64,000 nucleotides of DNA from Promethearchaeota archaeon (GCA_019058245.1 JAHPZJ010000013.1:361166-425165), one strand, 5' to 3'. Numbered from the stretch's first letter, positions 23,883-46,630 are shown. Translations and numbers: made by a program. The notes: a model not told the origin generated them from the sequence alone.

Positions 23883-25226
23883 ATGAATGAAGTCACAATA
23901 CCTTATGTTCAGATTACGCAGGTTAATGAAACTATTAAAGAATTTCCAAAAGAAAAAAATTGTACTAGAGATGAGTTATCTAATCGATTTGGTCAAAGCA
24001 AAATATCCAATATAATTCCCACGTTAGAAATCCTAAAACTTATAGATTATGATAAAGAAAATGGAGTTTTATCATTATCTAATCTAGGCAAAAATTATAA
24101 AATTGCTCTTATCACTGGCAGTGATGACGAGGCTGGGAGAATGTTAAAGCCTATTGTTATGAATTTGGAGTTTATAAAATTGATATATAATTTGTTAGAA
24201 AGAAAAAAAATGTTAACAAATGAAGAAATTGGAAAACATATCGCATATAAGTATTCAAAAGATTGGTCTACAAAATCTATGAGAGCTTATGGAGGATCAA
24301 TAGGAAGCATTCTTGGATTTTGTAGATTAGGTATATATTCGAGAGGAACAATAAGAATATCAACTAATACTTTTAATAATAAAAAAATACCTTTCTATCC
24401 CACAACAGGATTTAATAAAATCTTCAGAATTACTAAACTCATTTATGATTTTAAAGAAGCAGAATTGGATGACTTAGAAAAGTCTTTAGGAAAAAATGTA
24501 GGTAATGATTTAGGACCATGTATTGAGCTCGAATTGATAGAAAGACTAGCACCAAAAGTTTATACAATCACCGATAAGGGTGCTGAGCTTGTTAATATTT
24601 TTAATAAAGAAAAAATTTCAGAAAACTGGAAAAATATTTTATTTGAAAGCAAATATGGAGATTATATAATAGAATTAGAAGGAAAAACAATTAACATGGA
24701 AATCTTAGGTGAATTTTTGAATAACAAATTAGGAGGGAGTTGGAAATCAAAAATGACAGCAATTACATACGCAAAGAAATTTAATACATGGCTTAAAGCT
24801 GCTGAACTTGTCGAAAAAAAAGGAAAAGGTGAATACTTTGTTAAAAAAGGTGATAATAACTTAAATATAGCTGAATTGATTTCAGAATCTTCTGATAATA
24901 AAAGTCTGAATAATATAGTAAAAATAACAGAAAGTACTAAAAACTTACAAAAAGTCAATGATGGGAAGGTTAATGATGAAAATTTAAAACCTTTTGGCAT
25001 AAAAAATAAAAACATTTTTCAATTGATAGTATTTTTTGCTAGTCAATTAAATTCTGCAGAAATATCTTTAGATGAAATATCACAGATTATATATCAAGAT
25101 AAAGATTTGAGCCATACAAAAATAGCTTTTGAAATATTGAAAAATGATATAAAAAAGAATTTAATTGAACAAGATAAATTACATATTCTTTTAAAAGCAA
25201 TAATGCAAGATTTGAATATAATATAA
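23883..25226 (+). CDS. Protein with two tandem bipartite winged-helix modules (AAA-associated-domain-like)
   Basis: Internal repeat: TLEILKLI...LSNLGKNY vs PCIELELI...ITDKGAEL, and EEIGKHI...W...AY vs EILGEFL...W...TY. Confidence 0.6.
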   Translation: MNEVTIPYVQITQVNETIKEFPKEKNCTRDELSNRFGQSKISNIIPTLEILKLIDYDKENGVLSLSNLGKNYKIALITGSDDEAGRMLKPIVMNLEFIKLIYNLLERKKMLTNEEIGKHIAYKYSKDWSTKSMRAYGGSIGSILGFCRLGIYSRGTIRISTNTFNNKKIPFYPTTGFNKIFRITKLIYDFKEAELDDLEKSLGKNVGNDLGPCIELELIERLAPKVYTITDKGAELVNIFNKEKISENWKNILFESKYGDYIIELEGKTINMEILGEFLNNKLGGSWKSKMTAITYAKKFNTWLKAAELVEKKGKGEYFVKKGDNNLNIAELISESSDNKSLNNIVKITESTKNLQKVNDGKVNDENLKPFGIKNKNIFQLIVFFASQLNSAEISLDEISQIIYQDKDLSHTKIAFEILKNDIKKNLIEQDKLHILLKAIMQDLNII

Positions 25227-25241
25227 TAATAGATTAAATTT

Positions 25242-26168
25242 TTGAATAATATGGATCAGATACATTTAAGGCCCGTTAGTATACAATTAATGAAAAATAT
25301 TGTCAGATGTATCTTCTTTGGTCAGAGAAATAGGTCTATATTACCTATAGAGAAAATAGGTATAATTTTAAATAAAAGTCTTAAGTCAATTAAAAATGGA
25401 ATTTTTATGTTAAAAGAATTAAAAATTTTATTAGATTATCAAAACTTTCAATTGAATGAAGAAGTATATGAAAAATTGAATAATAATTGTCTAGTAGAAA
25501 AGATTTTATTTGAATATATTTCAAGATTTCCATTATTTTCTGAATATCTTTATTTACTTAGAAGAAAATTGCAAGATGTTGAACCTTCGATTTTATTGAA
25601 AAATATATTTAATTTAAAAATATCTGAGAACGTAATCAAATCAACATTTAATGGTTGGATTAAATTTTTTGAAATTGAAATAGAACAAAATACAGCAAAT
25701 GAATTATTAACTCCTATTAAATCAATAAAGGATGAAACAATGGCTATTTTATTTATCAGAGAAAATTTATACCATAATTTATCGATAATCCCTAAAACTG
25801 TCATAAATGATTTGATTGAAGGTATAATAAATGCAGAAAATCATCCTGATAATTCATTAACTGATACTGGACGTGCAATAGAAAATTTTTTAAGAATAAA
25901 TTATGGAAAAATTATCGATTTAAAAAATTGCAATGGGATTACTCAAATTTCTAATAAACTACGTGGACATAAAATGATATCACGTAAACATCATAACATA
26001 TTAGTTGGACTTGGTTCGATTAGATCTATAGGCGACGCTCATGGTTTAGATAAAGAAGAAAACAAGCTATGGGAAGTATCGAAAAATTCAGCACTACTTT
26101 TTTCTGCTCTTACAATTAAAACTATTAATAGCATTCAAAACTATAATGATGGTTCTCTTTCATTTTAA
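25242..26168 (+). CDS. wHTH module plus C-terminal HEPN/Abi_C-like domain
   Basis: C-terminal GRAIENFLR (conserved-Glu helix) and IRSIGDAHG (R-x5-H, like Abi_C RNxxxxAHG); 15 bp after the upstream gene. Confidence 0.65.
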   Translation: MNNMDQIHLRPVSIQLMKNIVRCIFFGQRNRSILPIEKIGIILNKSLKSIKNGIFMLKELKILLDYQNFQLNEEVYEKLNNNCLVEKILFEYISRFPLFSEYLYLLRRKLQDVEPSILLKNIFNLKISENVIKSTFNGWIKFFEIEIEQNTANELLTPIKSIKDETMAILFIRENLYHNLSIIPKTVINDLIEGIINAENHPDNSLTDTGRAIENFLRINYGKIIDLKNCNGITQISNKLRGHKMISRKHHNILVGLGSIRSIGDAHGLDKEENKLWEVSKNSALLFSALTIKTINSIQNYNDGSLSF

Positions 26169-28260: not shown

Positions 28261-29235
28261 ATGATTAAAACAAAAGTAACTGAAATGTTAGGATGTAAAT
28301 ATCCAATAATTGTAGGAACAATGGCTAATATTACTAATCCAGAATTTGTAGCTGCATGTAGCAATGCGGGTTCTTGTGCTGTGTTAGCCAGTGCGAATTA
28401 TAAAACTCCTGACGAATTACGTGAAGCAATCAGAAAAACAAAATCATTAACAAATCAATCTTTTGCTGTAAATATAAATTTATTTCCTGCCTTAATGCCA
28501 CAAGACAAATTAGAGGATTATGTTGAAGTAACTTTAGAGGAAGGAGCAAAAATTATTGAAACAAGCGGTCATAAAGCTCCAGAACATCTAGTGCCTAAAT
28601 TTAAAGATGGTGGTGCTATATGGATTCATAAATGTGCTGGTGTTAAATATGCAATAAAAGGAGCTTCATTGGGGGCTGATTTGATAACAGTAGTAGGATA
28701 TGAAAATGGAGGTGCAACTGGAATTTTAGATATTGGAACTCTCGTAATGGTACCAAGTGTAGTAGATGCTTTGAATATTCCTGTAATCGCAGGTGGAGGA
28801 GTTTCAGATGGGAGAGGAGTTGCAGCTATTTTAGCACTTGGCGCTGAAGGTGTAATTATGGGTACAAGGATGATGGCAACAAAAGAATGCCCTATCCATG
28901 ATAATTTAAAACAGGCATTAGTTAAGGCAAGTGAAACTGATACATCTTTAGTTATGAGGTCGATTCGCAATACTCATAGAGTATGGAGAAACAAAGCTGC
29001 GGAAAAGATCATTGAATTAGAATCAAAAAAGGCATCTCTCAAGGAGATCGTACAAGTAGCTTCAGGTCAAAATGCTTTAAAAATGTATAAAGAAGGAGAT
29101 CTTGACGTAGGGATGGTAAGTTGTGGTCAAGGTGTAGGAATAGTAAAGGATATTCCTACGGTAAAAGAGTTATTGGATCGAATAATGAAGGAAGCAGAAC
29201 AAGTAATCCAGAAATTAGAAAATATTTCAAATTAA
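28261..29235 (+). CDS. Nitronate monooxygenase / FabK-like FMN oxidoreductase
   Basis: KYPII.G.M; G.E.GG; PVIAGGGVSDGRG; LGAEGV.MGTR; GQGVG. Confidence 0.88.
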   Translation: MIKTKVTEMLGCKYPIIVGTMANITNPEFVAACSNAGSCAVLASANYKTPDELREAIRKTKSLTNQSFAVNINLFPALMPQDKLEDYVEVTLEEGAKIIETSGHKAPEHLVPKFKDGGAIWIHKCAGVKYAIKGASLGADLITVVGYENGGATGILDIGTLVMVPSVVDALNIPVIAGGGVSDGRGVAAILALGAEGVIMGTRMMATKECPIHDNLKQALVKASETDTSLVMRSIRNTHRVWRNKAAEKIIELESKKASLKEIVQVASGQNALKMYKEGDLDVGMVSCGQGVGIVKDIPTVKELLDRIMKEAEQVIQKLENISN

Positions 29236-29244
29236 AATTTGAAA

Positions 29245-30732
29245 TTAAGGATCATTCCTAAAGGGGTGTCTAGCATTTTCTACGTTTTCAATCCCATCAT
29301 CTACAGTTGGTAGTCCTTCCATTGCTTTTCGGATTGCATTACGAGTCGCTTTATAATTATTGATAAATACTCTTTTTCTTGCGCTAGCACTTGGATGTAC
29401 AAAAGCATTCACAATTATTACTAACTCCTCAGCTAGTGCCTTTGGAAGAATTCCATCTTCAATACAATGCATCACTGCCTTAGCAATTGCTGCTTGAGCA
29501 GGTCCATATGTAAGGCTCGCATGACGAAGTGATGTCGGACGTACGGTAGGGATCATAATAGTAGGCGGTTTTACTTGCATGTTTGGTTCAAGAATAACTT
29601 GAAGTCCTTCGCGTCCTTCTTCTGGATTAGTTAAAGCTTGAGCATAAGCAGTACCAACAGGTCCATCTTTTTTCCCAATTAATAGGTCAATATGAGCAAG
29701 CTCTGCTCGTTCTCCTACAAGTGATTCCCCTACTTTTAATTCGAAATCAGTAATTTTTTTAGGTGTAATTCCAACGGCATAAAATCGACTAGTTAATGGT
29801 TTTTCTCCAAGCTCAAATTGAATTTCTGATTTTTCGATTAATCCTAATTTTTCAAGTTCAACTCGTAATTCGTCTTTAATTTCATAAGAAAGAGTATCTC
29901 CTAAAATAATAGGTTGACGAGTTTTTCCTACAGGTACTTTCATCATATTTAAACAAGATTTTACTCCCAAAGCACCTGAATTTATCAAAAGTCTTGCCAA
30001 TTTCTGTATTTTTTTTTGAAGGATTTGAGCTTCTTCTAAACGATTATTTTTCACGTGATTATAAATTTCAATCCAAATATTTGGAATTACATTTGCTGAG
30101 CCTAAAATACATCCTGCTGCACCCCCTGCTAGAGCCCCCAAAACGTTTTCATCCCAACCTATAAGAACTGAAATCTTATCACTAACCTTTTCTAATAAAG
30201 CTGAAAAATATTTATAATCTCCACTTGAATCTTTAATGCCTACAATATTTTCGATATCTACAAGATCTTCAACAACCGTCCAAGGTAATTCTACTCCTGT
30301 ACAAATTGGAATATTATATAAAATAATGGGAATGTCTGTTTTTTCTGCGATAGTAAAATAGTGATCATATAATCCTTTCGCTTTTGGTTTTAAAAAATAA
30401 GGAGTAACAATTAAAACAGCATCAGCACCAATATCAGTTGCTGCTTTAGTATTATTAATTACTAATTTAGTTCCAGTATCGCCAGTTCCCGCGATAACAG
30501 GGACTCTACCATTTGTTTCATCTACGACAATTTTAATAACCTTTAAGCGTTCTTCAATGGTCATATTTACAAATTCTCCCGTAGTTCCAACGGGAACTAA
30601 TCCTGATACTCCTTGATCAATAAGATGATTTACAAGATTTCTTATATTCTCTTCATTTATAGATTCATCCTTATTAAAGGGAGTTACCATGGCAGGCATA
30701 ACTCCCGAAGGTCGAAAATTGAATTTAGACAT
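29245..30732 (-). CDS. Fusion of a DapA/NAL-family class I aldolase and a formaldehyde-activating enzyme (Fae) domain
   Basis: Residues 1-295: VTPF, GTTGE, TPYF, LYNIP, GIKDSSG (Schiff-base Lys). Residues ~330-495: VGESLVG...AHIDLLIG...GPVG.A...GPAQAAIAKAV...NYKATR.AI..A...HPF, which is the Fae signature. Confidence 0.9.
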   Translation of the reverse strand: MSKFNFRPSGVMPAMVTPFNKDESINEENIRNLVNHLIDQGVSGLVPVGTTGEFVNMTIEERLKVIKIVVDETNGRVPVIAGTGDTGTKLVINNTKAATDIGADAVLIVTPYFLKPKAKGLYDHYFTIAEKTDIPIILYNIPICTGVELPWTVVEDLVDIENIVGIKDSSGDYKYFSALLEKVSDKISVLIGWDENVLGALAGGAAGCILGSANVIPNIWIEIYNHVKNNRLEEAQILQKKIQKLARLLINSGALGVKSCLNMMKVPVGKTRQPIILGDTLSYEIKDELRVELEKLGLIEKSEIQFELGEKPLTSRFYAVGITPKKITDFELKVGESLVGERAELAHIDLLIGKKDGPVGTAYAQALTNPEEGREGLQVILEPNMQVKPPTIMIPTVRPTSLRHASLTYGPAQAAIAKAVMHCIEDGILPKALAEELVIIVNAFVHPSASARKRVFINNYKATRNAIRKAMEGLPTVDDGIENVENARHPFRNDP

Positions 30733-30759
30733 TTTTTATTAACTCCTTTCAAGTAAGTC

Positions 30760-32040
30760 TTATTTATGCAAATTTTGTGCTGCAATAATATCAATACCAT
30801 TTTCAATAAGTACTTTTGCAGTAGTATTGATAGCATCATATCTATCAAGAAGTCCTTGTCGCATAAACTCCCATTCTCCAGAATCAATTATTTCTTGTTT
30901 ATCTCTAAAATAATCCAGAATATCGGTAGGATATTCCCTTGTTTTTTCTACATCAATATTACCGCCTTCGTGTTTAGCACTAATATTTTTAACCTTTTTA
31001 GCAACTTCAATTAACTCGTTTCTTCGATCATAAGGTTGTCTTACGATGCTTTTCCATGTTTCAATAATATGGTGCTCTAATCTAACAACATCTTCAAAAT
31101 CAAATGCTTTTCTAATATAAGCAGATAATTCAAGGGTTTCATTATTTACTGAATTTGAAAGATTAAATCCTATTAGTGGACTTGAACCATCTTCTCTAGC
31201 AAATAATTTAGCAGTCATCAGAGTCCAGAGGCACGAATAAGGATTGTCATTACCCATATATACTGAAATCTTGAACTCATTATTTATTCCTAGTTTATGA
31301 ATAAAGTATCCAAGTAACACAGTTCCAGGATTAACATTTAGAACTTGCCTAATCCCATAATTAGTATAATAATAAAGAAATTCATCAATCCACTTTAAAG
31401 CAAATTCATTAGGTTGACCAACTCCGCCAAAATATCCAGTAATGGTATCAGATCCTCCTAAATGGATATTCACAGGCATACCATCAGGACCAGGGGTGGT
31501 TCCCTTAGTATCGAGAGTTTCAACATATGTTGCTCCTATTATTTGCATAGCAGCGGTCATTGCTAATAAATCACCATCTTCTTCTTGTTCTTCCATTTTT
31601 CTGACACGAATTATTCTTCCTGGCATTAAATTTTTATCTTTGATCGCTGCTTTAGCCATATCGATAAGGAAGGGAAAATATTGACAAGATGAAAGTTCTA
31701 GAGTTACCGCATGGTCCTTATCAAATTTAATATCCGATGATTTTTCACCTAGTATTTTTTTTTTAAAATCTGACATACTTATAAAAGCATCGTTGTCTCT
31801 GCTTTTAATTAACCAATCTAAATCTCTAATGTATTCAGGTTTTTTATTAGCAAGTCTATTTAATATAATATTTAATTTCCCTGCTTCTTCAGCTTTTTTA
31901 TTAATTTCATCAACTCCACCATATTCTTCGATGATTTTGAGTAAATAATTTATAAGGGGATTCTTCTCATCCAATAAAAATTCATTAATAGTCTGTAAAG
32001 CATTTTCATTAATTTTTAATTTTTCTCTTAAATTTTTCAT
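30760..32040 (-). CDS. Conserved-looking hypothetical enzyme, co-transcribed with the aldolase-Fae gene
   Basis: 426-aa ORF with Gly/His/Asp-rich motifs (VETLDTKGT, NIHLGG.DTITGYFGG.GQPN, SAKHEGG); 27-bp gap containing an AAGGAG SD for the downstream gene. Confidence 0.75.
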   Translation of the reverse strand: MKNLREKLKINENALQTINEFLLDEKNPLINYLLKIIEEYGGVDEINKKAEEAGKLNIILNRLANKKPEYIRDLDWLIKSRDNDAFISMSDFKKKILGEKSSDIKFDKDHAVTLELSSCQYFPFLIDMAKAAIKDKNLMPGRIIRVRKMEEQEEDGDLLAMTAAMQIIGATYVETLDTKGTTPGPDGMPVNIHLGGSDTITGYFGGVGQPNEFALKWIDEFLYYYTNYGIRQVLNVNPGTVLLGYFIHKLGINNEFKISVYMGNDNPYSCLWTLMTAKLFAREDGSSPLIGFNLSNSVNNETLELSAYIRKAFDFEDVVRLEHHIIETWKSIVRQPYDRRNELIEVAKKVKNISAKHEGGNIDVEKTREYPTDILDYFRDKQEIIDSGEWEFMRQGLLDRYDAINTTAKVLIENGIDIIAAQNLHK

Positions 32041-32491
32041 TTTAAGATTTCTCGTTATTTCGTAATTAATTATGAAAGCTTATAAAAACTAGACCCATTG
32101 TACTACTGTGGGTTTATAGAATAAATGAGGTTTTTCATAAATTTAATACTATTTTCTTATTATAATAAATTTTTCTTACTTTATATCAAAATAATAAATT
32201 GTCATCTTAAAATCGGATATTAAAATGTTAAGATAATTTATAATTCCGAATCATTTAGAATATTTATTCCAATAGATAATTATCAGAAATGTGGAAATAA
32301 TTAATCAGATATGGAGCGCTACAATGAGTACTAGGTATATTATTTAATTAATTTGAATTTAAATATTTTTAGAGAAATTAGTTAAAAATCGACCTTTATT
32401 CCATTTTAAATCTTTAATATTATAAGGTTATTAAGGAAAAAATGAAAAAAAATAAATTATTAAATTTTAAATTTTATATTATTTGTTAGTT

Positions 32492-34783
32492 CTATAAGTA
32501 TCTCTTTTTTCTCATCACTATGTAAACAATTCCTAGAAAAGCAATTAATGACGCAGATAAAACGATTCCAACTGAAAATCCTGGAATTGGTTCTGCAGCA
32601 GTAGGAGTATATTTTACTAAATCAAAATGCAATACTAAAATCCAATTCCATGCAGTTTTCCAATTCTTATCTACTGCGCGTCCGGTTAAATCATTTCCTA
32701 AATAGAGCATTGGATATTGATAATTCTGAGTCCAATCTGCCAATTCACTATAATACCTTTGGTTTCCAGTATCGTTTTGGAACCATAGTTTTGCAATCAA
32801 ATCATCACACGTAGCATTGTAACTAAAACCCATATTAGAACCTCCTTTATACGGGAATGCATAGGGATATGAAACCATATTGTAATCTGCTATGAATCTA
32901 GTATAAGGTTGATATGGGAAGGCAGCACCTGTTGGAGTTCGCTCAATAACTCCAGTGCTTTGATAATATGCTTGAAGGAATCCAAGATCACCAATACGGT
33001 TGTGATAAGGTTTAATTGCAAATCCATCACAGGATAATAAAGGAAGTTCCCCAGCTAATATTGCAGGATAAGTACCACCACTAACTGTATCGTCGGTATC
33101 ATCAATGTCACAACCAATATCCGCAAGAGAAGATATCAACACCTGATAAGATTCAACATGGGCTTGATCATAATGATCTTCAAATGTGTAAATAGGATTA
33201 GTACTTGCTACAGTGTTCCAATCCTCTGTTGTGCTAGTGCTATTCAAACTACGATTTGTACAAACTGCTCCCCAGACAGGATCATCTAGTAAGGTTTGTC
33301 GCGCTAACGTGAGGTTTGTATCAGGTAAAGGTACAGAGGGGTCATAATATTCGTGAGTACCTGCCAAACATCCCCCAGAACGCACTACCCGACCATCGTA
33401 TAATGCTAAATATGTGTCGTAATCATAGGCATAAGAAAGCGCTTTTCTAAAGGTCCGATCAACTCCATTTGTTGGCTTTAAACTTCCATTTGCGTACTTA
33501 ATATTAGTGGAGGACAAAATTCCATATGCACTCAAATTTAAGCCTATATCATACCAATAACGTAAATACGTCTCATCAACACAGTTTAAAACGATAACTT
33601 CTCCGTAATTTTCCTGACCCATATCTATATATTTCAAGTTAGAAGCGGTAGCTACATCACTATAAGTTAGTGGTTCCCATGAATGATCATAAGCAAAGTC
33701 AATATCACCTGTCACCAATGCAGTTGTCCTTGCATTATATCCTGATGTATCATGACTAAACGTAACTACTGCCACCTTTGGAAGCATATGCCACCCTCTA
33801 GCCTGTTGAGCTGAAGCGTTCCACCAATTATCATATCTTGTCATAGTACCTGAATCTAATGTGAAATTATCATACATATAGGGACCTGTACCAATTAAAT
33901 GTCCAGGGAAAGGAGATGATGCGTTATTTTGGGGAAATGCTGGAACATCTCCATATCCCATGATTGGAACATCAAAATAGTCCTTATAAGCATCCATGGA
34001 GATAAATTTTACCCACGCACCCCCTAAATATTCTGGACCGGTACCCCAATCATTAAAGTATACTCTAACTGTTCCTCCTGATTGCTGATTATCCAGTATG
34101 GTTATATTTGTGAATCGAGGGAATCTATTATAACCATATGGGACATCATATAGACTAGAATATCCAAATCCAGGATACACATTAAGATATCCATATGTAT
34201 AAGGACCAGGACCATATAGTTTAGAAACATTCCATGACGCAGTAGCATAAGGAGCCCAATCCTTAACACTCATCCAAAAAATTGGTCGATTATTAGACAC
34301 AGCGGAATCAACTGAACTACCTAGACAAAAATTGATACTTCCCAATGTATACATGAGCCTATCAAGATTCCATTTGCAAACTGTGGCGTTCCAATCTGAG
34401 CCATCCTGAAACGTAACGTTTTCTCGAAGAGTGAGATCCATATAATCAACTCCATCATAATTCATAAAACCTTGAGCGTTCATTTCATTTGGTCGGGAAT
34501 GTATTGTCCAATTGGTTGCAAGTAGTGGTACTAAATTAGCATAATCTCCGTTTTCCGCACCATATGGTAATTCAAATAATCCTTCAAGAGAATTATACCT
34601 GAAATAATCGCCAGTAGTAGCTGCAAAATTTATACCGTCCCAATTACCTATGGGGGCAGGTCCGCAAGCTCCTACAGTAAAAGTGGGTATCGTAGTTTGA
34701 GCTTTGACACTAAAAGGTATAATTGGTAATAACATAGAAATAATAAATAGAGCAAAAATTAAAGTTTTTGACCATTTTCTCAT
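32492..34783 (-). CDS. ABC substrate-binding protein, family 5 (peptide/nickel type), with IPGF C-terminal sorting signal
   Basis: Signal peptide; PLLATNW; LRENVTFQDGSDWNATVCKWN; GTGPY; FRKALSYAYDY; more than a dozen NxS/T sequons; ends IPGF-TM-RKKR. Confidence 0.88.
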   Translation of the reverse strand: MRKWSKTLIFALFIISMLLPIIPFSVKAQTTIPTFTVGACGPAPIGNWDGINFAATTGDYFRYNSLEGLFELPYGAENGDYANLVPLLATNWTIHSRPNEMNAQGFMNYDGVDYMDLTLRENVTFQDGSDWNATVCKWNLDRLMYTLGSINFCLGSSVDSAVSNNRPIFWMSVKDWAPYATASWNVSKLYGPGPYTYGYLNVYPGFGYSSLYDVPYGYNRFPRFTNITILDNQQSGGTVRVYFNDWGTGPEYLGGAWVKFISMDAYKDYFDVPIMGYGDVPAFPQNNASSPFPGHLIGTGPYMYDNFTLDSGTMTRYDNWWNASAQQARGWHMLPKVAVVTFSHDTSGYNARTTALVTGDIDFAYDHSWEPLTYSDVATASNLKYIDMGQENYGEVIVLNCVDETYLRYWYDIGLNLSAYGILSSTNIKYANGSLKPTNGVDRTFRKALSYAYDYDTYLALYDGRVVRSGGCLAGTHEYYDPSVPLPDTNLTLARQTLLDDPVWGAVCTNRSLNSTSTTEDWNTVASTNPIYTFEDHYDQAHVESYQVLISSLADIGCDIDDTDDTVSGGTYPAILAGELPLLSCDGFAIKPYHNRIGDLGFLQAYYQSTGVIERTPTGAAFPYQPYTRFIADYNMVSYPYAFPYKGGSNMGFSYNATCDDLIAKLWFQNDTGNQRYYSELADWTQNYQYPMLYLGNDLTGRAVDKNWKTAWNWILVLHFDLVKYTPTAAEPIPGFSVGIVLSASLIAFLGIVYIVMRKKRYL

Positions 34784-34969
34784 TCTAACGATTCGCCTTA
34801 TTTTTCTTTAAATTAATTTTTAATTTTTTTGTAAAATTTTTGTAACAAATAAATTTACGATGTAAATTTATTTAAAGGTTGTGTAATTATAAATTTAAAC
34901 ATTTGTGAAACTTATAACAAATATTAATTTTTAAGTTAAATTTAATGTCATAAAATCCGATTTTGGATA

Positions 34970-35506
34970 ATGTTGCTAGACGAGGAAAATCAAAGTAAAA
35001 GAGTTAATAACAAGAAAGGCAATATAAAGATCGATCTTGGGCGCCAAGGTGGTATTTTTATTGCTTACACGATTATATTACTAGGATATTATGGAATTGT
35101 TGCTAACATCATTATGATTGATGAGTGGATCTCTTTTACTGAACAAACTTGGATAAGTTTTACTGAAATGGACAGAACGGTATTATTTTGGACATTTGAA
35201 GTGTATGTAGATACGTTTTTCTTGCCCGTAATATTATTATTTGTTACTTGCTTTTTATTAACATATAAGGAGGAAATTCCTCACTATGGAATAAAAGCGT
35301 CAATCTGGCTTGTTCCTTTTATAATTATCGAAGCCTTTATTTTATATGCGGTCATGTATGGGTTTAGCATAGAGCCAATTATATTACAATTTGGAAATTG
35401 GAAGGGTTATTTGCATATTTGTATCTTAATTGCAACCACACTCTCTGGTGCTATAGGTGGTATGAAAGTCAAACAATTAATTAAATCAAGAAGAAATATA
35501 GAATAG
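34970..35506 (+). CDS. Small ~4-TM membrane protein heading the ABC operon
   Basis: Four hydrophobic segments; 42 bp from the next gene. Confidence 0.7.
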   Translation: MLLDEENQSKRVNNKKGNIKIDLGRQGGIFIAYTIILLGYYGIVANIIMIDEWISFTEQTWISFTEMDRTVLFWTFEVYVDTFFLPVILLFVTCFLLTYKEEIPHYGIKASIWLVPFIIIEAFILYAVMYGFSIEPIILQFGNWKGYLHICILIATTLSGAIGGMKVKQLIKSRRNIE

Positions 35507-35548
35507 GAGAATTAAAAAGATATTATCGGTAGAAAAAAGGGAAAAAAC

Positions 35549-36826
35549 ATGGCTAAACAACCAAAAAATATGATAAAATATATCATAAAGAGGATATTAA
35601 TAATGTTTCCAATGTTGTTATTAGTTCTAACTCTTTCTTGGATAATATCATATTTTATGGTACAACAAAATTTAGTTAACCCGGTTGCCGGTAGATTGGG
35701 TAATACACTCGATCCTGATATTATTGAGGCAGAATTACGGAGAATTAGATACTATGATCCTTGGTATATTCAACTCGCTATATATTTTAAGAATTTTTTT
35801 ACTGGAAATTGGGGTACTTCTTATGTAATCATACGGGATAAACCTGTAATAGATTTAATTTCGGAAATATTTCCAAGGACAATAGAATTGATGATGATCC
35901 CGATAATCTTAAGTCCTATTATCGCAGTTAAACTGGGAATAGCTTCTGCAACTCATAGGGATAAAATAAAAGATGTAGGAGTTAGAATTATTGCAATCTT
36001 AGGGGCAGGATTCCCTGTCTTTTGGATTGCTGACATGCTCCAACGCTTTTTTGGTTATTATTTGAGTAATTTTACATATCAGGGCATCGATATACCGGCT
36101 TTTTTCGCAAATTCACCTGGATTACAAGGTCCTCAGGTAATTAAAACTCCACCTTTAATTACCATAAGTTTTTTTGGTGCTATAATTTTAGCCATTATTG
36201 CCATCCTTCTAATTTATAAACAATATACTAAATTTAAACAATATAATAAGTTCAAGCACATTGGTTGGATACTAGGATCACTTGTTATATTGATTATTTG
36301 TATAATCCGAATTTGTTTCCTAGCAGTGATTTCAAATATAAATTCTTATGGTACAGGATTTCGAATAATCGATAGTATAATGACTAATAACCAAATTTAT
36401 TTGTGGGACACAATATCACACCTAATTATACCTGGTATTTGTTTAACTTTTGTTTCATTAGCAAGTATGACAAGACAAACGCGTTCCAGCATGTTGGACG
36501 TTTTAAATCAAGATTATATTAGAACTGCTCGAGCTAAAGGTGTATTAGAAAAAGATGTTATAAATAAACATGCTATCCGCAACGCACTGTTACCAGTCAG
36601 TAATCTAATCATTGGGGGTACAGCTACAGCATTATTAGGCTCTTTTTTCGTCGAAATTGTCTTTAATTATAAAGGATTTGGTTATTATATGGTTATATCT
36701 ATATTAGTAGGAGATTACCAAGTTACTCTCGGACTCCTAGTATTTGCTACCATAATAATCATTTCTGGGACTTTAGTAGCAGATATACTTTATACGATTA
36801 TAGATCCACGAATTACTTACACTTAA
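35549..36826 (+). CDS. dppB: Peptide ABC permease, DppB/OppB-like
   Basis: KYIIKRIL; GNWGTS; PRTIEL; TRSSMLDVLNQDYIRTARAKG; ADILYTIIDPRI. Confidence 0.9.
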   Translation: MAKQPKNMIKYIIKRILIMFPMLLLVLTLSWIISYFMVQQNLVNPVAGRLGNTLDPDIIEAELRRIRYYDPWYIQLAIYFKNFFTGNWGTSYVIIRDKPVIDLISEIFPRTIELMMIPIILSPIIAVKLGIASATHRDKIKDVGVRIIAILGAGFPVFWIADMLQRFFGYYLSNFTYQGIDIPAFFANSPGLQGPQVIKTPPLITISFFGAIILAIIAILLIYKQYTKFKQYNKFKHIGWILGSLVILIICIIRICFLAVISNINSYGTGFRIIDSIMTNNQIYLWDTISHLIIPGICLTFVSLASMTRQTRSSMLDVLNQDYIRTARAKGVLEKDVINKHAIRNALLPVSNLIIGGTATALLGSFFVEIVFNYKGFGYYMVISILVGDYQVTLGLLVFATIIIISGTLVADILYTIIDPRITYT

Positions 36827-36837
36827 ATAATGGTAGG

Positions 36838-37848
36838 GTGAAGAAAATTATAGAAAAAGTTATAGAAAAAAAATATGTAGAAGAGCAGATTTCATCGAAA
36901 TCATTAAGAAAAATGAAATTTCTTCGCTTCTTAAAGTTTTATTTAATTCCCGGTTGGCGAGACCCTGAATTTTCGGCGCAAGAATATGATATTGAAAAAA
37001 TAAAATCTAAAAGGAGATTGTTTCGACACCTTGTTAAACCTCTAACAATAATAGGACTGCTGATGATCTTATTTATTTCAGTATTAGCAATATTTGCACC
37101 TTGGCTTACCATATATCCACTACAAGAGCTAGTAGTACCAAATGTTCCACCTAATCCAGAGGTTTTTGCTCCTCCATCAGCTGATCATCCATTTGGGACA
37201 ACATATAACGGATATGATGTTTTAGCTAGAATTATTTGGGGAGCCAGAACTACAATTTTATCGTCGTTAATACCTTCAATAATATCCATTGGTGGAGGCC
37301 TTGTTTTAGGCATTTTTTCTGCTTATTTCGGTGGGGTTATTGACTATCTCATAATGCGCTTTGTAGACTTATTCTATGCTTTTCCAACACTGATACTTAT
37401 TATTATAGTTACTCCTCTGCTTGGTACTGATTTATTAACCACTCTTATTATTTACGGACTTCTTTTTATACCATATAATATTAGATTCATGCGATCACTT
37501 GTTTTCCAAGTAAAACAACTTGAATACATTCAAGCAGCGAAAGTAGGTGGTGCCCAAAAGTTTAATGTTATGTTTAAACATATATTACCAAATGCAATAT
37601 CCCCTATGTTAGTACTTTTTTTTGGAGGAGCTGCTATCGCAATAATAGGTTTAGCAGGTCTTGCATTTGTAGGATTTTCAGATAATACTGTAGCCAGTTG
37701 GGGTCTTGATATTTTATGGGCTCGAGGTAGGTATAGTAATATCAGTGCTGCTGTTTGGCCAGGATTATTTATTGGAATTGCTGCCATAGGATATATACTC
37801 GTTGGAGATGGATTTCGAGATGCATTAGATCCACGATTAAAATTATAA
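36838..37848 (+). CDS. dppC: Peptide ABC permease, DppC/OppC-like
   Basis: PPSADHPFGT..GYDVLARIIWGAR; EYIQAA..GA; KHILPN; GDGFRDALDPR. Confidence 0.9.
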   Translation: MKKIIEKVIEKKYVEEQISSKSLRKMKFLRFLKFYLIPGWRDPEFSAQEYDIEKIKSKRRLFRHLVKPLTIIGLLMILFISVLAIFAPWLTIYPLQELVVPNVPPNPEVFAPPSADHPFGTTYNGYDVLARIIWGARTTILSSLIPSIISIGGGLVLGIFSAYFGGVIDYLIMRFVDLFYAFPTLILIIIVTPLLGTDLLTTLIIYGLLFIPYNIRFMRSLVFQVKQLEYIQAAKVGGAQKFNVMFKHILPNAISPMLVLFFGGAAIAIIGLAGLAFVGFSDNTVASWGLDILWARGRYSNISAAVWPGLFIGIAAIGYILVGDGFRDALDPRLKL

Positions 37849-37888
37849 AAAAGAGGGATAAAAAGTTTTAAATACTATATATCAAACT

Positions 37889-39766
37889 GTGTTTGGATTA
37901 AATTACGGAAATGCATTAGTTGACTCAATTATTATTGTATTAGTTTTATATTTAATTTCAAACATTGTCAATAGTCAAATTCCTGAGGATCAGCAACTCT
38001 CAAAGAAATTATTTAGGAGAAGTTCAGGAAAAATTTGTATTATTTTATTAGGCATTATCTTTGGCGTTAAATCTCTTTTTGAAACTTTATGGCTTTTCAA
38101 TTCCATATTTTTAGTTTTCAATAATAATGCTGTATCATTCGCTATTATAAGTACAATCTTTTATTTTCTATATAGGAAATTAGAAGAAAAGGATAGTCAA
38201 TTTATTAAAATATTTAAAATTTTTGTTGTAATAACTTGGATAATTGCGATAATTTTTATTTCAATTCCTCTCTTAGGTCTTGAAAGACTTCAAGGGGAAG
38301 AACCAGTACTTATTGACATTTTTTACCTTGGATTTATATTTGCCGGTTTTACAGTTGCGGGGGATATTCTTATCACAATTCTAATTAATAATATTCGTTC
38401 AATTGAGAAGCGAATTCCTAAATTACCTTTAAAGTATTCCATGTTTACTGGTGGACTTATCTCATTTGGAATTTGGTCTATACAATTAATAATCGTTGAA
38501 TTATATTTGAATAGATTATTTGGAGTAATAATATATACTCAAGATATTCGTATATTAATTGGTGTAGTTAGTGGTCTTTATGGTTTCATATGCTATATTT
38601 CGTTGAAAAAGAAATTTATGCCAATTGAAAAGGAAAAAAGTAAGTTAAAAGTTCAAAAAGCATTAGAAATAGTGAAAGATCAATCTTTTAAAGTATCTAA
38701 ATTAAGTAGCAATCACATTATACTTGATGTGAAGGACCTCACTACATACTTTTATACAGAAGAGGGTGTTGTTCGTGCAGTAGAAAATGTTTCTTTTAGA
38801 GTGTACGAAGGTGAAGTTCTTGGTCTTGTAGGTGAAACTGGTTGTGGTAAATCTGTTACTGCATTATCTATTGTTCAACTAATTCGCCCTCCAGGAAAAA
38901 GAGAAACAGGAAAAATTGTTTTCAGTGGAGAAGATCTAGCTTTAAAGTCTGAATTTGAAATACTAAAATATCGTGGAAAGGATATAACTATGATATTTCA
39001 AGATCCACTTAGTTCGCTTAACCCAGTTTTTAAGGTAGGTAAACAAATATCTGAAGTATTTTTATTGCATATGGAAAATGAACTACTTGTCGAAACTACT
39101 AAATTTCCTAATAAAGGTTTATATAGTATTGCTCGAGAATGGAGTATTGCCCTTTTAAAAGATTTAAATATACCATTTCCTGAAATAATTTTTGATAGAT
39201 ACCCTCATGAACTAAGTGGTGGTATGCGACAAAGAGTTCAAATTGCGATGGCATTGGCATGTAGACCTAAATTACTAATTGCTGATGAACCAACTACTGC
39301 GTTAGATGTTACTATACAAAATCAAATTCTTAAACTTATGAAAGAACTTCGTAAGAAATATAATACTAGTATATTATATATCACTCACGATTTAGGCCTT
39401 ATCTCTAAAATGTGTGATCGTGTTGCTGTAATGTATAGTGGATCTATTGTTGAATATGGAGATATAAAGAAATTATTAATTAACCCATATCATCCATATA
39501 CCCGAGGACTTATAGCTTCTGTTCCTGTTATTGGAAAAAGTCAAAAACGGCTTGAAGTGATATCAGGAATGGTTCCAAATCTAATTTATCCACCTTCAGG
39601 ATGTAGATTTCATCCTAGATGCAAATATTGTTTCGAACCTTGTAATTCAATAGTTCCAAAACAAAATAAGGTTGATGAGGATTATTTTGTGGCATGTCAT
39701 CTATACAATCCAGAATATAAACATTTAGCAGAAATTGTTATAGAAAAAGTAGAAGGAGAAATTTAA
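37889..39766 (+). CDS. dppD: Peptide ABC ATPase, DppD-like, with an N-terminal ~270-aa multi-pass membrane domain
   Basis: GETGCGKS; YPHELSGGMRQR; IADEPTTALD; PSGCRFHPRC; about 7 hydrophobic segments before the NBD. Confidence 0.85.
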   Translation: MFGLNYGNALVDSIIIVLVLYLISNIVNSQIPEDQQLSKKLFRRSSGKICIILLGIIFGVKSLFETLWLFNSIFLVFNNNAVSFAIISTIFYFLYRKLEEKDSQFIKIFKIFVVITWIIAIIFISIPLLGLERLQGEEPVLIDIFYLGFIFAGFTVAGDILITILINNIRSIEKRIPKLPLKYSMFTGGLISFGIWSIQLIIVELYLNRLFGVIIYTQDIRILIGVVSGLYGFICYISLKKKFMPIEKEKSKLKVQKALEIVKDQSFKVSKLSSNHIILDVKDLTTYFYTEEGVVRAVENVSFRVYEGEVLGLVGETGCGKSVTALSIVQLIRPPGKRETGKIVFSGEDLALKSEFEILKYRGKDITMIFQDPLSSLNPVFKVGKQISEVFLLHMENELLVETTKFPNKGLYSIAREWSIALLKDLNIPFPEIIFDRYPHELSGGMRQRVQIAMALACRPKLLIADEPTTALDVTIQNQILKLMKELRKKYNTSILYITHDLGLISKMCDRVAVMYSGSIVEYGDIKKLLINPYHPYTRGLIASVPVIGKSQKRLEVISGMVPNLIYPPSGCRFHPRCKYCFEPCNSIVPKQNKVDEDYFVACHLYNPEYKHLAEIVIEKVEGEI

Positions 39767-39863
39767 TTAAAACTATTTAAGTAAATGAAATTTGAGGTTG
39801 TATCATTATCTTGGCATTCTTAATAAAAATTAGCGAATATAAATATAAAGTTGAGGAGATCTT

Positions 39864-41219
39864 ATGATTTTTCAATTTATTAGATTTTCAACCATTTTAA
39901 GATTAGCGTTAGTTATACCCATTGTAGCTCTTTTTTGTTTAGCTTTTGTTATTTCTTTTTTTATCATAAATTGGGATCCTCGATCCCAATTAATTAGAAG
40001 AAGATTCCCTCTATATATAATTTCATCACTTATTTGTATTATTTTTAGCTTTATTCCTCTACCAGAAATTATAGTAGGTAACTTTTGGTTATTTTTTATT
40101 GCATACTGTTTAATAGCAGTGATTACTAGTTTTGCTATTAAGTATATTACATTTAAAGTAGTTAGGGTCGAAAAATTTTATCAAATTAGTGATCTTGAAA
40201 GAAATAAGAATCTGCTTGAAGTTAAAAATCTTAAAGTACATTATCCACTTATAGGAGGATTTTTAAAAAGAAAAATAGGTGCTGTTAAAGCAGTTGATGG
40301 AGTTTCATTTGATATAAAGTTTGGTGAAACCCTTGGATTAGTGGGAGAAAGTGGATGTGGAAAAACAACTATTGCAAAAGTGTTACTCGGTTTAGTTGAA
40401 AAAACAGAAGGAGAAATGCTTTTCCAAGATATGGCAATTCCTCCCAATTATTCATGTTATTTAAGACAAAAAATTCAAATGATTTTCCAAGATCCAGATG
40501 CTTCCTTAAACCCTCGTAAAAAAATCGTTGATATTATAGCGGATCCTCTCAAAAATTTGCTTGGCATAACTAATGAAATAGAAATAAGAAGAAGGGTTTT
40601 AGATTTGTTAACCCAAGTGTCATTAAAGCGAGAACATATGGATCGTTATCCTCACGAATTTTCAGGTGGACAAAAGCAAAGAATTGTTATAGCTAGAGCG
40701 TTAGCTTGCAATCCAGCGTTGATAATATTGGATGAACCCACTTCTGCACTTGATGTATCAGTTCAAGCACAAATTCTTAACCTTCTTAAAGATTTACAAG
40801 AAAAATATGGCTATGGATTTTTGTTTATTACCCACAATTTAGCTGTTGTCTCCCATGTTGCTGATCGCGTAGCTGTTATGTATCTTGGTAAATTTGTAGA
40901 GGTTGGAAGTAAGGAACAAATTTTTTCAAATCCAACTCATCCCTATACTCGAGCGCTCCTTGCCTCACGTTCTGAAATAGATCCTTACAATCAAGAAATC
41001 AAATTTGTTATAAAAGGTGAAGTCCCAAGCCCTATAGCACCGCCACCTGGTTGTACTTATAATCCACGCTGTTCTTCTGAGTTTCGTACAAAAGAGTGTG
41101 AAATTGAATTGCCTCATAAGATTAAGATTGAAGATGACCACTTTATTTGGTGTGTAAATCCTCCTAAATCAATGCAATCAACAATTCAAAAATCTGAAGA
41201 GAGTTTATCTGCTAAATAG
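39864..41219 (+). CDS. dppF: Peptide ABC ATPase, DppF-like, with an N-terminal ~3-TM domain
   Basis: VKAVDGVSF; GESGCGKT; YPHEFSGGQKQR; DEPTSALDVSVQAQ; GEVPSP; hydrophobic first ~100 aa. Confidence 0.85.
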   Translation: MIFQFIRFSTILRLALVIPIVALFCLAFVISFFIINWDPRSQLIRRRFPLYIISSLICIIFSFIPLPEIIVGNFWLFFIAYCLIAVITSFAIKYITFKVVRVEKFYQISDLERNKNLLEVKNLKVHYPLIGGFLKRKIGAVKAVDGVSFDIKFGETLGLVGESGCGKTTIAKVLLGLVEKTEGEMLFQDMAIPPNYSCYLRQKIQMIFQDPDASLNPRKKIVDIIADPLKNLLGITNEIEIRRRVLDLLTQVSLKREHMDRYPHEFSGGQKQRIVIARALACNPALIILDEPTSALDVSVQAQILNLLKDLQEKYGYGFLFITHNLAVVSHVADRVAVMYLGKFVEVGSKEQIFSNPTHPYTRALLASRSEIDPYNQEIKFVIKGEVPSPIAPPPGCTYNPRCSSEFRTKECEIELPHKIKIEDDHFIWCVNPPKSMQSTIQKSEESLSAK

Positions 41220-41395: not shown

Positions 41396-43846
41396 ATGGT
41401 AGTTCGAAGTTTTAAGTTGAGCCCTATCCCAGGGACACCCTCGGAAAGGGTTCTTAAGATTAGAGATAGAATGCTATCTATGCCTAGAGAACTTGACATT
41501 GAGAGAGCTCGGTGTTATACAAGAATTTACAAACAAATGGAGGATGCTCCTCCATGTATAAAAAATACTAAAGCATTAGAGGAATTTTTGCGATGCATTC
41601 CAATAAGAATTGAAGACGATGAGCTACTTGTCGGTGTAAAATCTAGTAAAGTAAGAGCAGATCCAATGGAAATAGAACGTGGAATGCGTGCTGCAATTTT
41701 TGGGTTTCTTTATAATGATTCAATAGATCAAAAAATAAGAGATGCATTTGCTCAAAATTTTTCATGGGTTAATCGGTATGTTCCCTTAACAGAACAAGAA
41801 ATTGATGAAATGAAAAATGAAATTCTTCCCTACTGGAAAGATAGGACCGTAGAGGCTCGACAGAGAGAATATTATAAAAATGCAGGTTTGATTGAAGAAC
41901 CGAAGGAATCTAAGAGTCCAGCAATTCCCTTTATGAGTTATATAGGTGGTACTGATATGTTTGCAGTTGCTCATGGTCAGGGTCATGTCATTCCAGGATA
42001 TCGGCGAGTACTTAAGATGGGATTCGAAGGAATCGAAAAGATGGCACAAGAAGGACTTGTGAAACTCAAGGAAACTGACGAAAATTATGACCAACGCAAG
42101 GATTTTTATGAATCAGTTGTGGTGGCAGCACAAGCAGTCATCGAATATTCCAATCGCTATGCAGATCTCGCAATGGAAATGGGTCAAAATGCTCCAGAAG
42201 CAAGAAAGGTTGAACTTCTGGAAATCGCTGAACGTGTAAGAAGAGTGCCCGCTCAGCCCCCTAGAACATTTATAGAAGCACTCCAATCAATTTGGATGAC
42301 GAATGTTGTTATGGAAATGAGTTATGGCGATGGAAATATATTTTCTCAAGGACGAGTTGACCAATATCTTTATCCATATTACGCAGTAGATTTAGCTGAA
42401 GGACGTATTACATATGAAGAGGCTCTAGAAGCAATTGAGGAATATTTAGTGAAACTTGCTTCAGTCGTTATAGCAGGACAGAATAATATTACTATTGGAG
42501 GATTAGATTATGATGGAAATGATGCGACTAATGATGTGTCTTACATGTTTCTCGAAGCAATTGCAAATGTAAAAAGTCTATTAAACACCTTATCAATTAG
42601 GATATCTTCCAAGACACCCCATGAATTTGTTAAAAGATCGATTGAAGCTTTTAAATTTACCGGTGGAATGGCTATTCATAATGATGACATTTTGGTACCT
42701 CAACTTAATAATACAGGGTATTCCTTAGAAGATGCCCGTGATTATTCACTTGTAGGATGTGTAGAACCTGCTGGTACTGGAAATGATTTTTCATATACGG
42801 CTGGTAATATCGTTCAGATTTCAATCCTTTTTAATATGGCATTAAATGAGGGACGTACTATTTTTTCAGGAAATAAAACTGTCGGCGCGAAAACACCCCC
42901 AGCCAGTACTTTTAAATCTTTTGAAGATATGAAAAAAGCATTCGTCGACCAACTAAAGTTTGCTATAGATCTTACTGTGAGAAAAGCGGAATTAAAGGAT
43001 AAAGCCTTTGCTGATTATTTACCTTCCCCATTGCTTTCATCTTCAATAGAGGGATGTCTCGAGAGCGGAATGGATGGAACCCGAAATGGAGCAAAATACA
43101 ATAATAATCCTATGGGTTCACAAGGATTAGCAACGGTCACTAATTCCTTAGCTGCAATTCGTTGGGCTGTATTTGAAGAGAAATTAGTAACAATGGAAGA
43201 ATTGGTTAAGTATATGAATAGTAACTTCAGAGGCACCGAAGATCTTCGAGAAAAATTACGAAATAAGGCTCCTAAATATGGAAATGGTGATGAAAGAACA
43301 GACGAACTTGCTAAATGGGTAGCAACTACCCTTTGTGAACTTACAAGGACATATAAAGCAAGGGGTGGTGATGGTATTTATCATAATTGCCTCGTATCTT
43401 CAGGAACTCAGATTATGGAGGGGCAAATGTTAGGGGCAACTGCTGATGGAAGATTAATGGGTCAACCCGTAGCGAATGGTATTTCTCCTGCAAATGGTAC
43501 AGAAAAGAATGGTCTTACTATGGCTCTTAGATCCGTAGCTTATGCTACAACTGAACCTCATCTAACTAATGGAGCCGCCATGAATATCAGAATTAATCCC
43601 ACCTTATTAGAAACAGACGAGGGAATCGAATATATGACTTCCATAGTAGAAGCTTATCTTGAATTAGGAGGAAGGGAGCTTCAGATAAATCCTATAAGTT
43701 CAGAAACACTTAGAGACGCACAAGCCCATCCAGAAAAATATCCTGACCTTTCAGTTAAAGTTTCAGGCTACTCTGCTCGATTTATAGATATAACAAAAGA
43801 GCTTCAGGACGATATTATCGACAGAACTGTTTTCAATGAATTATAA
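41396..43846 (+). CDS. Glycyl radical enzyme (PFL-like family), copy 1
   Basis: GRVDQYLYPYY; active-site GCVEP; APKYGN; GATADGR; C-terminal HPEKYPDLSVKVSGYSARF. Confidence 0.92.
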   Translation: MVVRSFKLSPIPGTPSERVLKIRDRMLSMPRELDIERARCYTRIYKQMEDAPPCIKNTKALEEFLRCIPIRIEDDELLVGVKSSKVRADPMEIERGMRAAIFGFLYNDSIDQKIRDAFAQNFSWVNRYVPLTEQEIDEMKNEILPYWKDRTVEARQREYYKNAGLIEEPKESKSPAIPFMSYIGGTDMFAVAHGQGHVIPGYRRVLKMGFEGIEKMAQEGLVKLKETDENYDQRKDFYESVVVAAQAVIEYSNRYADLAMEMGQNAPEARKVELLEIAERVRRVPAQPPRTFIEALQSIWMTNVVMEMSYGDGNIFSQGRVDQYLYPYYAVDLAEGRITYEEALEAIEEYLVKLASVVIAGQNNITIGGLDYDGNDATNDVSYMFLEAIANVKSLLNTLSIRISSKTPHEFVKRSIEAFKFTGGMAIHNDDILVPQLNNTGYSLEDARDYSLVGCVEPAGTGNDFSYTAGNIVQISILFNMALNEGRTIFSGNKTVGAKTPPASTFKSFEDMKKAFVDQLKFAIDLTVRKAELKDKAFADYLPSPLLSSSIEGCLESGMDGTRNGAKYNNNPMGSQGLATVTNSLAAIRWAVFEEKLVTMEELVKYMNSNFRGTEDLREKLRNKAPKYGNGDERTDELAKWVATTLCELTRTYKARGGDGIYHNCLVSSGTQIMEGQMLGATADGRLMGQPVANGISPANGTEKNGLTMALRSVAYATTEPHLTNGAAMNIRINPTLLETDEGIEYMTSIVEAYLELGGRELQINPISSETLRDAQAHPEKYPDLSVKVSGYSARFIDITKELQDDIIDRTVFNEL

Positions 43847-43849
43847 TAA

Positions 43850-43860
43850 TTTTTTTTTTT
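43850..43860 (+). terminator. Oligo-T terminator after GRE copy 1
   Basis: T11 run 3 bp after the stop. Confidence 0.55.
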
Positions 43861-43900
43861 ATTCTATTTTTTCATTCGTGATACTCCGTGGAAATAAAAT

Positions 43901-43942
43901 ATTATAAAAACATTTATTAATATATAATGTCTATTAAAATTC
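43901..43942 (+). promoter_or_regulatory. Putative BRE/TATA promoter for a leaderless transcript of GRE copy 2
   Basis: AAAAACATTTATTAATA about 25 bp before the ATG; 39/42 nt identical to 46589-46630. Confidence 0.6.
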
Positions 43943-46393: not shown

Positions 46394-46588
46394 ACAGTAC
46401 TATCGAATTAATATAATTAATATTAAAAATTTTTATTTTCTTTTACTATATTATCGTATTTATGATAAAACTTCGAAATTAATTATTAATTAAAAATCTT
46501 TTAGCTAGAGAAATAATAATTCAGATCTATTTTCAATTCAAAAGCTTTCGAAATCTAAAAGAAAAAAAAGTCAAATATTTATTATTCT

Positions 46589-46630
46589 ATTATAAAAACA
46601 TTTATAAATATATATTGTCTATTAAAAATC
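46589..46630 (+). promoter_or_regulatory. Putative BRE/TATA promoter for GRE copy 3
   Basis: AAAAACATTTATAAATA; near-duplicate of 43901-43942. Confidence 0.6.

Follow-up and report, generated by a model that had tools for sequence, protein, structure and literature searches.

The archaeal Fae-Hps protein (PRK13307, NF009833) consists of an aldolase joined to Fae, and formaldehyde is captured on H4MPT; the fusion protein studied here resembles it in both respects. The pyruvate aldolases of the DHDPS/NAL family (DapA, NanA, KDG aldolases and the HpaI-like enzymes of TIGR02313) have in common with this fusion the fold, the GxTGE motif and the catalytic Tyr and Lys. In the synthetic homoserine cycle, a 4-hydroxy-2-oxobutanoate (HOB) aldolase and a HOB transaminase lead from pyruvate and formaldehyde via HOB to homoserine; promiscuous enzymes were used in this cycle and HOB was called a non-native metabolite (PMC8879981).

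Judged from sequence, two adjacent genes of a Promethearchaeota archaeon look like an undescribed natural route from a four-carbon keto acid to pyruvate and a C1 unit; until now, this reaction has been known chiefly from pathway engineering. We propose that these genes, encoding an aldolase-Fae fusion and a 426-aa protein, may form a module leading from HOB to C1, and we give this reading as a whole a probability of about 0.6. In the literature searched, which covered few subscription journals, neither the fusion nor its two partner families were found described; in a paper on the complete genomes of Atabeyarchaeia, Fae-Hps is mentioned but the fusion is not.

The locus and the aldolase-Fae fusion

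The window is the whole stretch of 64,000 nt that was analysed (GCA_019058245.1 JAHPZJ010000013.1:361166-425165). The two genes lie on its minus strand, the 426-aa gene first and the fusion second, with the following features:

32041..32491, no strand assigned: AT-rich intergenic region of 451 nt 5' of the 426-aa gene, which presumably contains the promoter
30760..32040, minus strand: 426-aa gene, unassigned TIM-barrel family, distant homologue of the 315-aa U32-like family, proposed HOB-forming enzyme
30733..30759, minus strand: spacer of 27 nt between the 426-aa and fusion genes with a Shine-Dalgarno-like AAAGGAG, read from the sequence
29245..30732, minus strand: gene of the 495-aa DapA-like aldolase::Fae fusion
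29854..30711, minus strand: class I aldolase (DHDPS/NAL family) domain of the fusion, aa 8-293
30301-30303, minus strand: Cys144 codon of the fusion (position of the DHDPS Arg)
30232-30234, minus strand: codon of the Schiff-base Lys167 of the fusion
29260..29733, minus strand: Fae domain of the fusion, aa 334-491, C-terminal HPF kept
29692-29694, minus strand: His347 of AHIDL in the Fae domain

The AAAGGAG sequence precedes the ATG of the fusion, and the spacing of the two genes and the conservation of their order suggest a putative operon. The operon linkage asserted in the sequence-only reading recurs elsewhere, the fusion following the 426-aa gene by 60 nt or less in 54 of 80 genome loci. 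A scan of 32041..32491 for bacterial-type promoters gave no signal above chance. Convergent with the module, a gene for a nitronate-monooxygenase/FabK-like flavoprotein (28261-29235, plus strand) ends 9 nt from the fusion stop; since it adjoins the module in only 3 of the 80 loci, it is probably unrelated to it. Upstream of the module, a peptide/nickel-type ABC system (family 5 binding protein, permeases, ATPases) occupies 32492-41219. A tandem trio of glycyl-radical (PFL-like) enzymes, each 813-816 aa long, is encoded at 41396-49072 (plus strand) and, convergent with this trio, a radical-SAM activase at 49298-50245 (minus strand); at several Lokiarchaeia loci, relatives of these PFL-like and activase genes are found close to the module. 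The window also contains two ORFs of low GC content (447 and 308 aa; 23883-26168, plus strand) which have no Pfam match and interrupt an otherwise conserved gene run; they are possibly defence or mobile cargo.

Pfam domains and alignment with M. extorquens Fae (1Y5Y) bear out the initial description of a DapA-family TIM barrel fused to a complete Fae domain with the His of AHIDL kept. The aldolase part matches PF00701 (DHDPS) at aa 8-293 (E 6.5e-78) and keeps GTTGE, Tyr139 and Lys167, which are features of the DHDPS-family barrel. The Fae part matches PF08714 at aa 334-491 (E 2.3e-54; model positions 1-158 of 159), the protein exceeds the TIGR03126 cut-off (184 vs 118 bits), and both His347 of AHIDL and the C-terminal HPF align with 1Y5Y. 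The Fae domain is predicted to form methylene-H4MPT. In tandem aldolase-Fae pairs (L182-L186, L203, L116, L130 and L164), the first copy is devoid of AHIDL and of the HPF tail; unlike these first copies, the single fusion of this window has both.

In DHDPS, the Arg after the YNxP motif binds aspartate semialdehyde. Alignment to PDB sequences places Cys144 of the fusion (YNIPICT) at the position of this Arg in solved DHDPS. The earlier statement that the Arg is replaced by Cys holds in its first half for the whole set of 25 aligned fusions from Asgard archaea, Bathyarchaeia and metagenome contigs, from all of which the Arg is absent; its second half does not generalize, Cys being common with Val or Leu in some. 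Other changes are also family-wide: G-W/H-D-E and ILASA replace GDD and ISV, and NPxPV is lost. The databases nevertheless treat the aldolase domain as true DHDPS, which would make its fusion to Fae incidental. The fusion does pass the TIGR00674 DapA cut-off (247 vs 206 bits), its best PDB sequence matches are DHDPS, and NCBI and JGI records label members of the fusion cluster DapA. Against this, neither the Arg nor the NPxP motifs remain in any fusion aligned, the fusion is strictly tied to H4MPT genomes, and a lysine-pathway neighbour of the module was found in none of about 170 loci inspected. The question raised earlier, whether the fusion is the genome's DapA, is answered in the negative by a separate, asd-linked DapA in the same genome, which keeps the Arg (YNSPHRTG) and scores 329 bits with TIGR00674. 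Identity with DHDPS is thus hardly credible: the Arg lost in 25/25, the altered DHDPS motifs and a true DapA beside asd argue that the fusion is not the lysine enzyme and that its database name is a mislabel. Correction of this systematic mislabel is worthwhile, because it would otherwise inflate predictions of lysine synthesis.

The genome carrying the window has Mch and Ftr, and it also has PanB and Fae-Hps. The latter protein (L170:8582-9883, C26) consists of 433 aa, about 40 aa more than its family model, and scores 516 bits. Co-occurrence of the 426-aa gene, the fusion and H4MPT genes, which had been put forward as a check, was profiled in Asgard genomes and an association was found. As the genomes are related, the counts are descriptive and not independent tests: Mch is present in 65 of the 68 fusion genomes and a 426 or 315 gene (see below) also in 65 of 68; among genomes with a 426/315 gene, the fusion occurs in 62/70 with Mch vs 3/22 without it, and among Mch genomes without 426/315 in only 3/31.

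The 426-aa family and its 315-aa homologue

The 426-aa protein has no Pfam (PF01136 included), NCBIfam, PDB sequence/profile or ESM Atlas feature match, and PF02548 (PanB) matches neither this protein nor the fusion. Its family is very large and tight: clustering at 90% identity gives at least 8000 clusters (each of the 8000 candidates that were scored proved to be a match), nearly all full-length members are at least 40% identical, and in a search at the 1.8-billion scale distant full-length paralogues with less than about 40% identity were not found. The gene is present in 63 of 151 Asgard genomes, and the family extends to Anaerolineae, Deltaproteobacteria, cyanobacteria, gut bacteria and a Polaromonas plasmid; the named closest relatives of the protein are mostly labelled Promethearchaeota, so that the host is most likely an Asgard archaeon of the Lokiarchaeia type. 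The present proposal offers a testable function for this very large conserved family without annotation.

The predicted structure (pLDDT 93) consists of a TIM barrel preceded by a helical extension at the N-terminus. The Foldseek comparison recommended earlier gave no match that assigns a reaction, the PDB fold matches being generic TIM barrels of low identity in a flat ranking (best VIA Z about 12), with 5D88 at Z 11.2 tied with many other barrels. Invariant polar residues of the family include E115, R142, R147, H193, K257, S259, E322, H324, K356, H357 and E358, and an alignment of 140 sequences contains no conserved Cys.

An Atlas shape search with the 426-aa model retrieved 316-aa U32-annotated proteins (TM 0.76 by target), and this same family (315 aa) adjoins the fusion in those Asgard groups that do not have the 426 gene. 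The profiles of the two families match in HHalign (92%, E 5e-7), and both families have the strand-1 Glu, the K-x-S of strand 5 and the K-x-E of strand 8. None of the 151 genomes has both genes (63 and 29 carriers; about 12 expected if independent), and this exclusion holds even within one genus. The 315-aa family is a distant homologue of the 426-aa family which takes its place in other lineages, and the 426 partner is not obligate. Other partners of the 315-aa gene are PanB (Anaerolineae), tandem fusions and the 4-hydroxy-2-oxovalerate aldolase DmpG. Compared with 5D88, the 315-aa homologue reaches Z 14.3 (rmsd 3.1, 186 aligned), a Z in which CutC and class II aldolases tie; its alignment likewise contains no conserved Cys. 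On an Enterobacter plasmid (L200:8901-20505), a 315-family member lies amid genes for a phosphotransferase, a 2-hydroxyacid dehydrogenase, an aminotransferase, two iron-containing redox enzymes, an M14 peptidase and an MFS protein, a cluster which looks biosynthetic, perhaps for an unusual amino acid. In Thermomicrobium and Streptomyces (L197, L198), the 315-family gene is accompanied by sugar ABC, galactonate-dehydratase-like and lactonase genes, and no recognised aldolase was found in the stretch read.

Partner genes and the proposed pathway

In the scheme that we propose, the aldolase domain would hold the keto acid as a Schiff base on Lys167 and split HOB into pyruvate and formaldehyde, and the fused Fae would combine formaldehyde with H4MPT to methylene-H4MPT, which would enter the H4MPT Wood-Ljungdahl branch. 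In net terms, the fusion would be an H4MPT-using functional equivalent of a PanB-type hydroxymethyltransferase. This step is better supported than the HOB-forming step ascribed to the 426-aa protein. HOB is probably the substrate of the fusion, and the pathway probably runs in the catabolic direction. An aldolase acting on a 4-hydroxy-2-oxo acid, with HOB as an example, had already been suggested from the sequence, and genomic context now speaks independently for it and for HOB in particular, PanB or a set of aminotransferase, homoserine dehydrogenase and aldehyde:ferredoxin oxidoreductase (AOR) being swapped for the fusion as partner.

The gene next to 426 is that of a class I aminotransferase in 21 of the 80 genome loci; homoserine dehydrogenase occurs in 18 and AOR in 16, and this set was never found in the same locus as the fusion (0/80). 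It belongs to genomes labelled Hod- or Heimdallarchaeota, and neither Mch nor the fusion was found in the genomes with the set (families f5, 0/13, and f22, 0/7). The operon often ends there in the PatB C-S lyase. Homoserine is aminated HOB, and the three enzymes could provide a sink in which HOB would pass via homoserine and aspartate semialdehyde to aspartate. Five Hod-/Heimdall genomes, 88-96% complete, contain no aspartate kinase or intact Asd over the cut-off, and threonine-synthase homologues are present in Hod/Heimdall genomes without aspartate kinase. These homologues leave the anabolic direction open and count against the catabolic one. The same enzymes would then convert methylene-H4MPT and pyruvate to HOB and homoserine, or the 426-aa enzyme would add a thiol at C4 to give the methionine keto acid, in a natural C1-assimilating 'homoserine' route. 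In principle every step can also run backwards, the addition of a thiol to an enone is favoured, and thrC lies close to the 426 gene in family f7. We still consider the anabolic direction unlikely: ordinary homoserine synthesis is provided for in the genome of the window by asd, hom and dapA, Fae draws formaldehyde to methylene-H4MPT, and the transporters, amino-acid dehydrogenases and TyrR/Lrp/IclR-type regulators nearby suggest catabolism.

In 88 further 426 loci, which are mostly metagenomic and partly redundant, near-duplicates included, PanB is the commonest partner (30/88) and tandem fusions occur in six; a UxaA/AOR/DapA-like cluster convergent on the 426 gene (L087-L104) was left out of the partner counts. 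PanB is a partner also in a 40%-identical gut subfamily of the 426 family. A 100/99 branch separates the 426-linked PanBs from 15 canonical PanBs (a small outgroup sample), and no panC/panD motif was found near the linked ones in those loci. All 24 of 24 linked PanBs have Ile at the position of E. coli Val214. This residue belongs to the pocket that is enlarged by V214G and I212A (PMC7610986), so that altered, probably smaller substrates are suggested. PanB has partially complemented for HOB aldolase in P. putida in vivo (10.1101/2025.02.17.638773). The linked PanBs would convert HOB to pyruvate and methylene-THF, where the fusion would give pyruvate and methylene-H4MPT.

PanB, IlvD, PanE-like and Leu/Val dehydrogenase neighbours also fit ketoisovalerate and pantoate chemistry, which counts against the HOB module. 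The substrate would then be ketopantoate and the fusion an H4MPT-dependent ketopantoate hydroxymethyltransferase of CoA synthesis or pantoate breakdown, the 426-aa protein acting in the same route; a few fusion-bearing groups (g3, f13) in which PPS is present and PanB was not found agree with this. It appears improbable, as an ordinary PanB is present in the genome of the window and in most fusion genomes and PPS in 120/151, as the separate branch, changed pocket and missing panC/panD set the linked PanBs apart, and as the homoserine-dehydrogenase route does not fit pantoate. A role of the module in filling a gap in CoA synthesis was rejected, PanB and PPS being generally present.

Since all three partner sets plausibly share HOB, the 426 gene should make or use this compound. 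Its partner varies with the C1 carrier of the host, the aldolase-Fae fusion being the partner where H4MPT exists and the homoserine-dehydrogenase set that of hosts in which no H4MPT marker was found. Directly before the 426 gene, an Asgard genome without Mch (L193:6085-7131) and Calothrix (L221:4577-5635) have a divergent DapA-like protein of about 350 aa without Fae; this stand-alone protein is a possible fourth sink. At L111 and L119, the 426 gene lies inside a Wood-Ljungdahl cluster, directly 3' of AcsE-like methyltransferase and CooC genes, and an Ldh_2 dehydrogenase follows.

The 426/315 neighbourhoods include Leu/Val-type dehydrogenases, aminotransferases, a LIV transporter, the PatB C-S lyase, a keto-acid decarboxylase and a PanE-like reductase, which suggests the keto acid of an amino acid. 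A 2-oxo acid can readily lose a leaving group at C4 and then take up water. The 426-aa barrel might act in this way on a 4-substituted 2-oxobutanoate, eliminating the C4 group and re-adding water to give HOB; the chance that it is such a C4-lyase/hydratase falls a little short of even. The most economical substrate, at a guess, would be 4-methylthio-2-oxobutanoate formed by transamination of methionine, which would yield HOB and methanethiol, and one aminotransferase could, again at a guess, recycle the amino group between methionine and HOB. Methionine as the source of HOB is tentative. Anti-correlation with methionine gamma-lyase offers no contrast, as no genome passes the TIGR01328 cut-off. 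Equally tentative is the wider idea that methionine, or another C4-substituted homoserine skeleton, is degraded via HOB in a widespread, undescribed natural pathway of Asgard archaea, Bathyarchaeia and anaerobic bacteria, with a new, cofactor-free family of TIM-barrel lyases and three interchangeable sinks set by the C1 carrier of the host. If it is true, HOB would be a native metabolite, and methanethiol and C1 units in sediments would have a biological source not recognised before.

The genes around some 426/315 members form sugar-acid clusters (dehydratase, lactonase, Dak), a setting in which methionine would be hard to explain; these clusters favour either subfamily-specific substrates or another origin of the keto acid. 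HOB or another 4-hydroxy-2-oxo acid could arise from tetronate or sugar-acid dehydration or from homoserine lactone, and the 426/315 protein would then be a 2-oxo-lactone hydrolase or a new pyruvate aldolase and not a C4 lyase. IlvD, DgoD-like and UxaA-like dehydratases, lactonases and Dak kinases flank some members, class II aldolases rank first in Foldseek for both the 426-aa and the 315-aa model, and HOB is sold as its lactone. This origin is nonetheless quite unlikely, given that a dehydratase is linked in no Asgard locus, that the fold ranking is flat with low identity and that a second aldolase beside an aldolase would be redundant.

Comparison with known systems

The architecture of the fusion resembles that of Fae-Hps. 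In contrast to it, the fusion has the aldolase N-terminal, this aldolase is a DapA-family Schiff-base barrel and not Hps, and its proposed substrate is a keto acid instead of a sugar-phosphate. The fusion scores below the PRK13307 cut-off (148 vs 274 bits); only its Fae part matches and it has no Hps domain. It differs from the DHDPS/NAL family in the loss of the DHDPS Arg and in being joined to Fae, and its scores do not reach the cut-offs for NanA, KdgD, archaeal KDG aldolase or TIGR02313.

PanB (PF02548) moves a hydroxymethyl group between a 2-oxo acid and a C1 carrier of the pterin type, which is also the net reaction proposed for the fusion, and a branch of PanB takes the place of the fusion beside the same partner genes. 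The analogy is functional only, because PanB is an unrelated, THF-using class II metal aldolase with ketoisovalerate as its canonical substrate. On the side of the partner protein, the U32 family (UbiU/V, TrhP, RlhA; Mk0906, PDB 5D88) is a described group with some likeness, the 315-aa homologue being annotated as U32 in some records and having 5D88 among its top fold matches. U32 hydroxylases typically carry a four-Cys Fe-S motif (PMC10990095), whereas the 426 and 315 families, having no conserved Cys, do not have it.

The proposed chemistry is that of the synthetic homoserine cycle, with the difference that dedicated conserved genes are proposed for it in the Asgard module. If HOB is the substrate, Asgard amino-acid fermentation would be joined directly to the H4MPT Wood-Ljungdahl branch, and nature would have dedicated versions of the promiscuous aldolases that engineers borrow for C1 assimilation.
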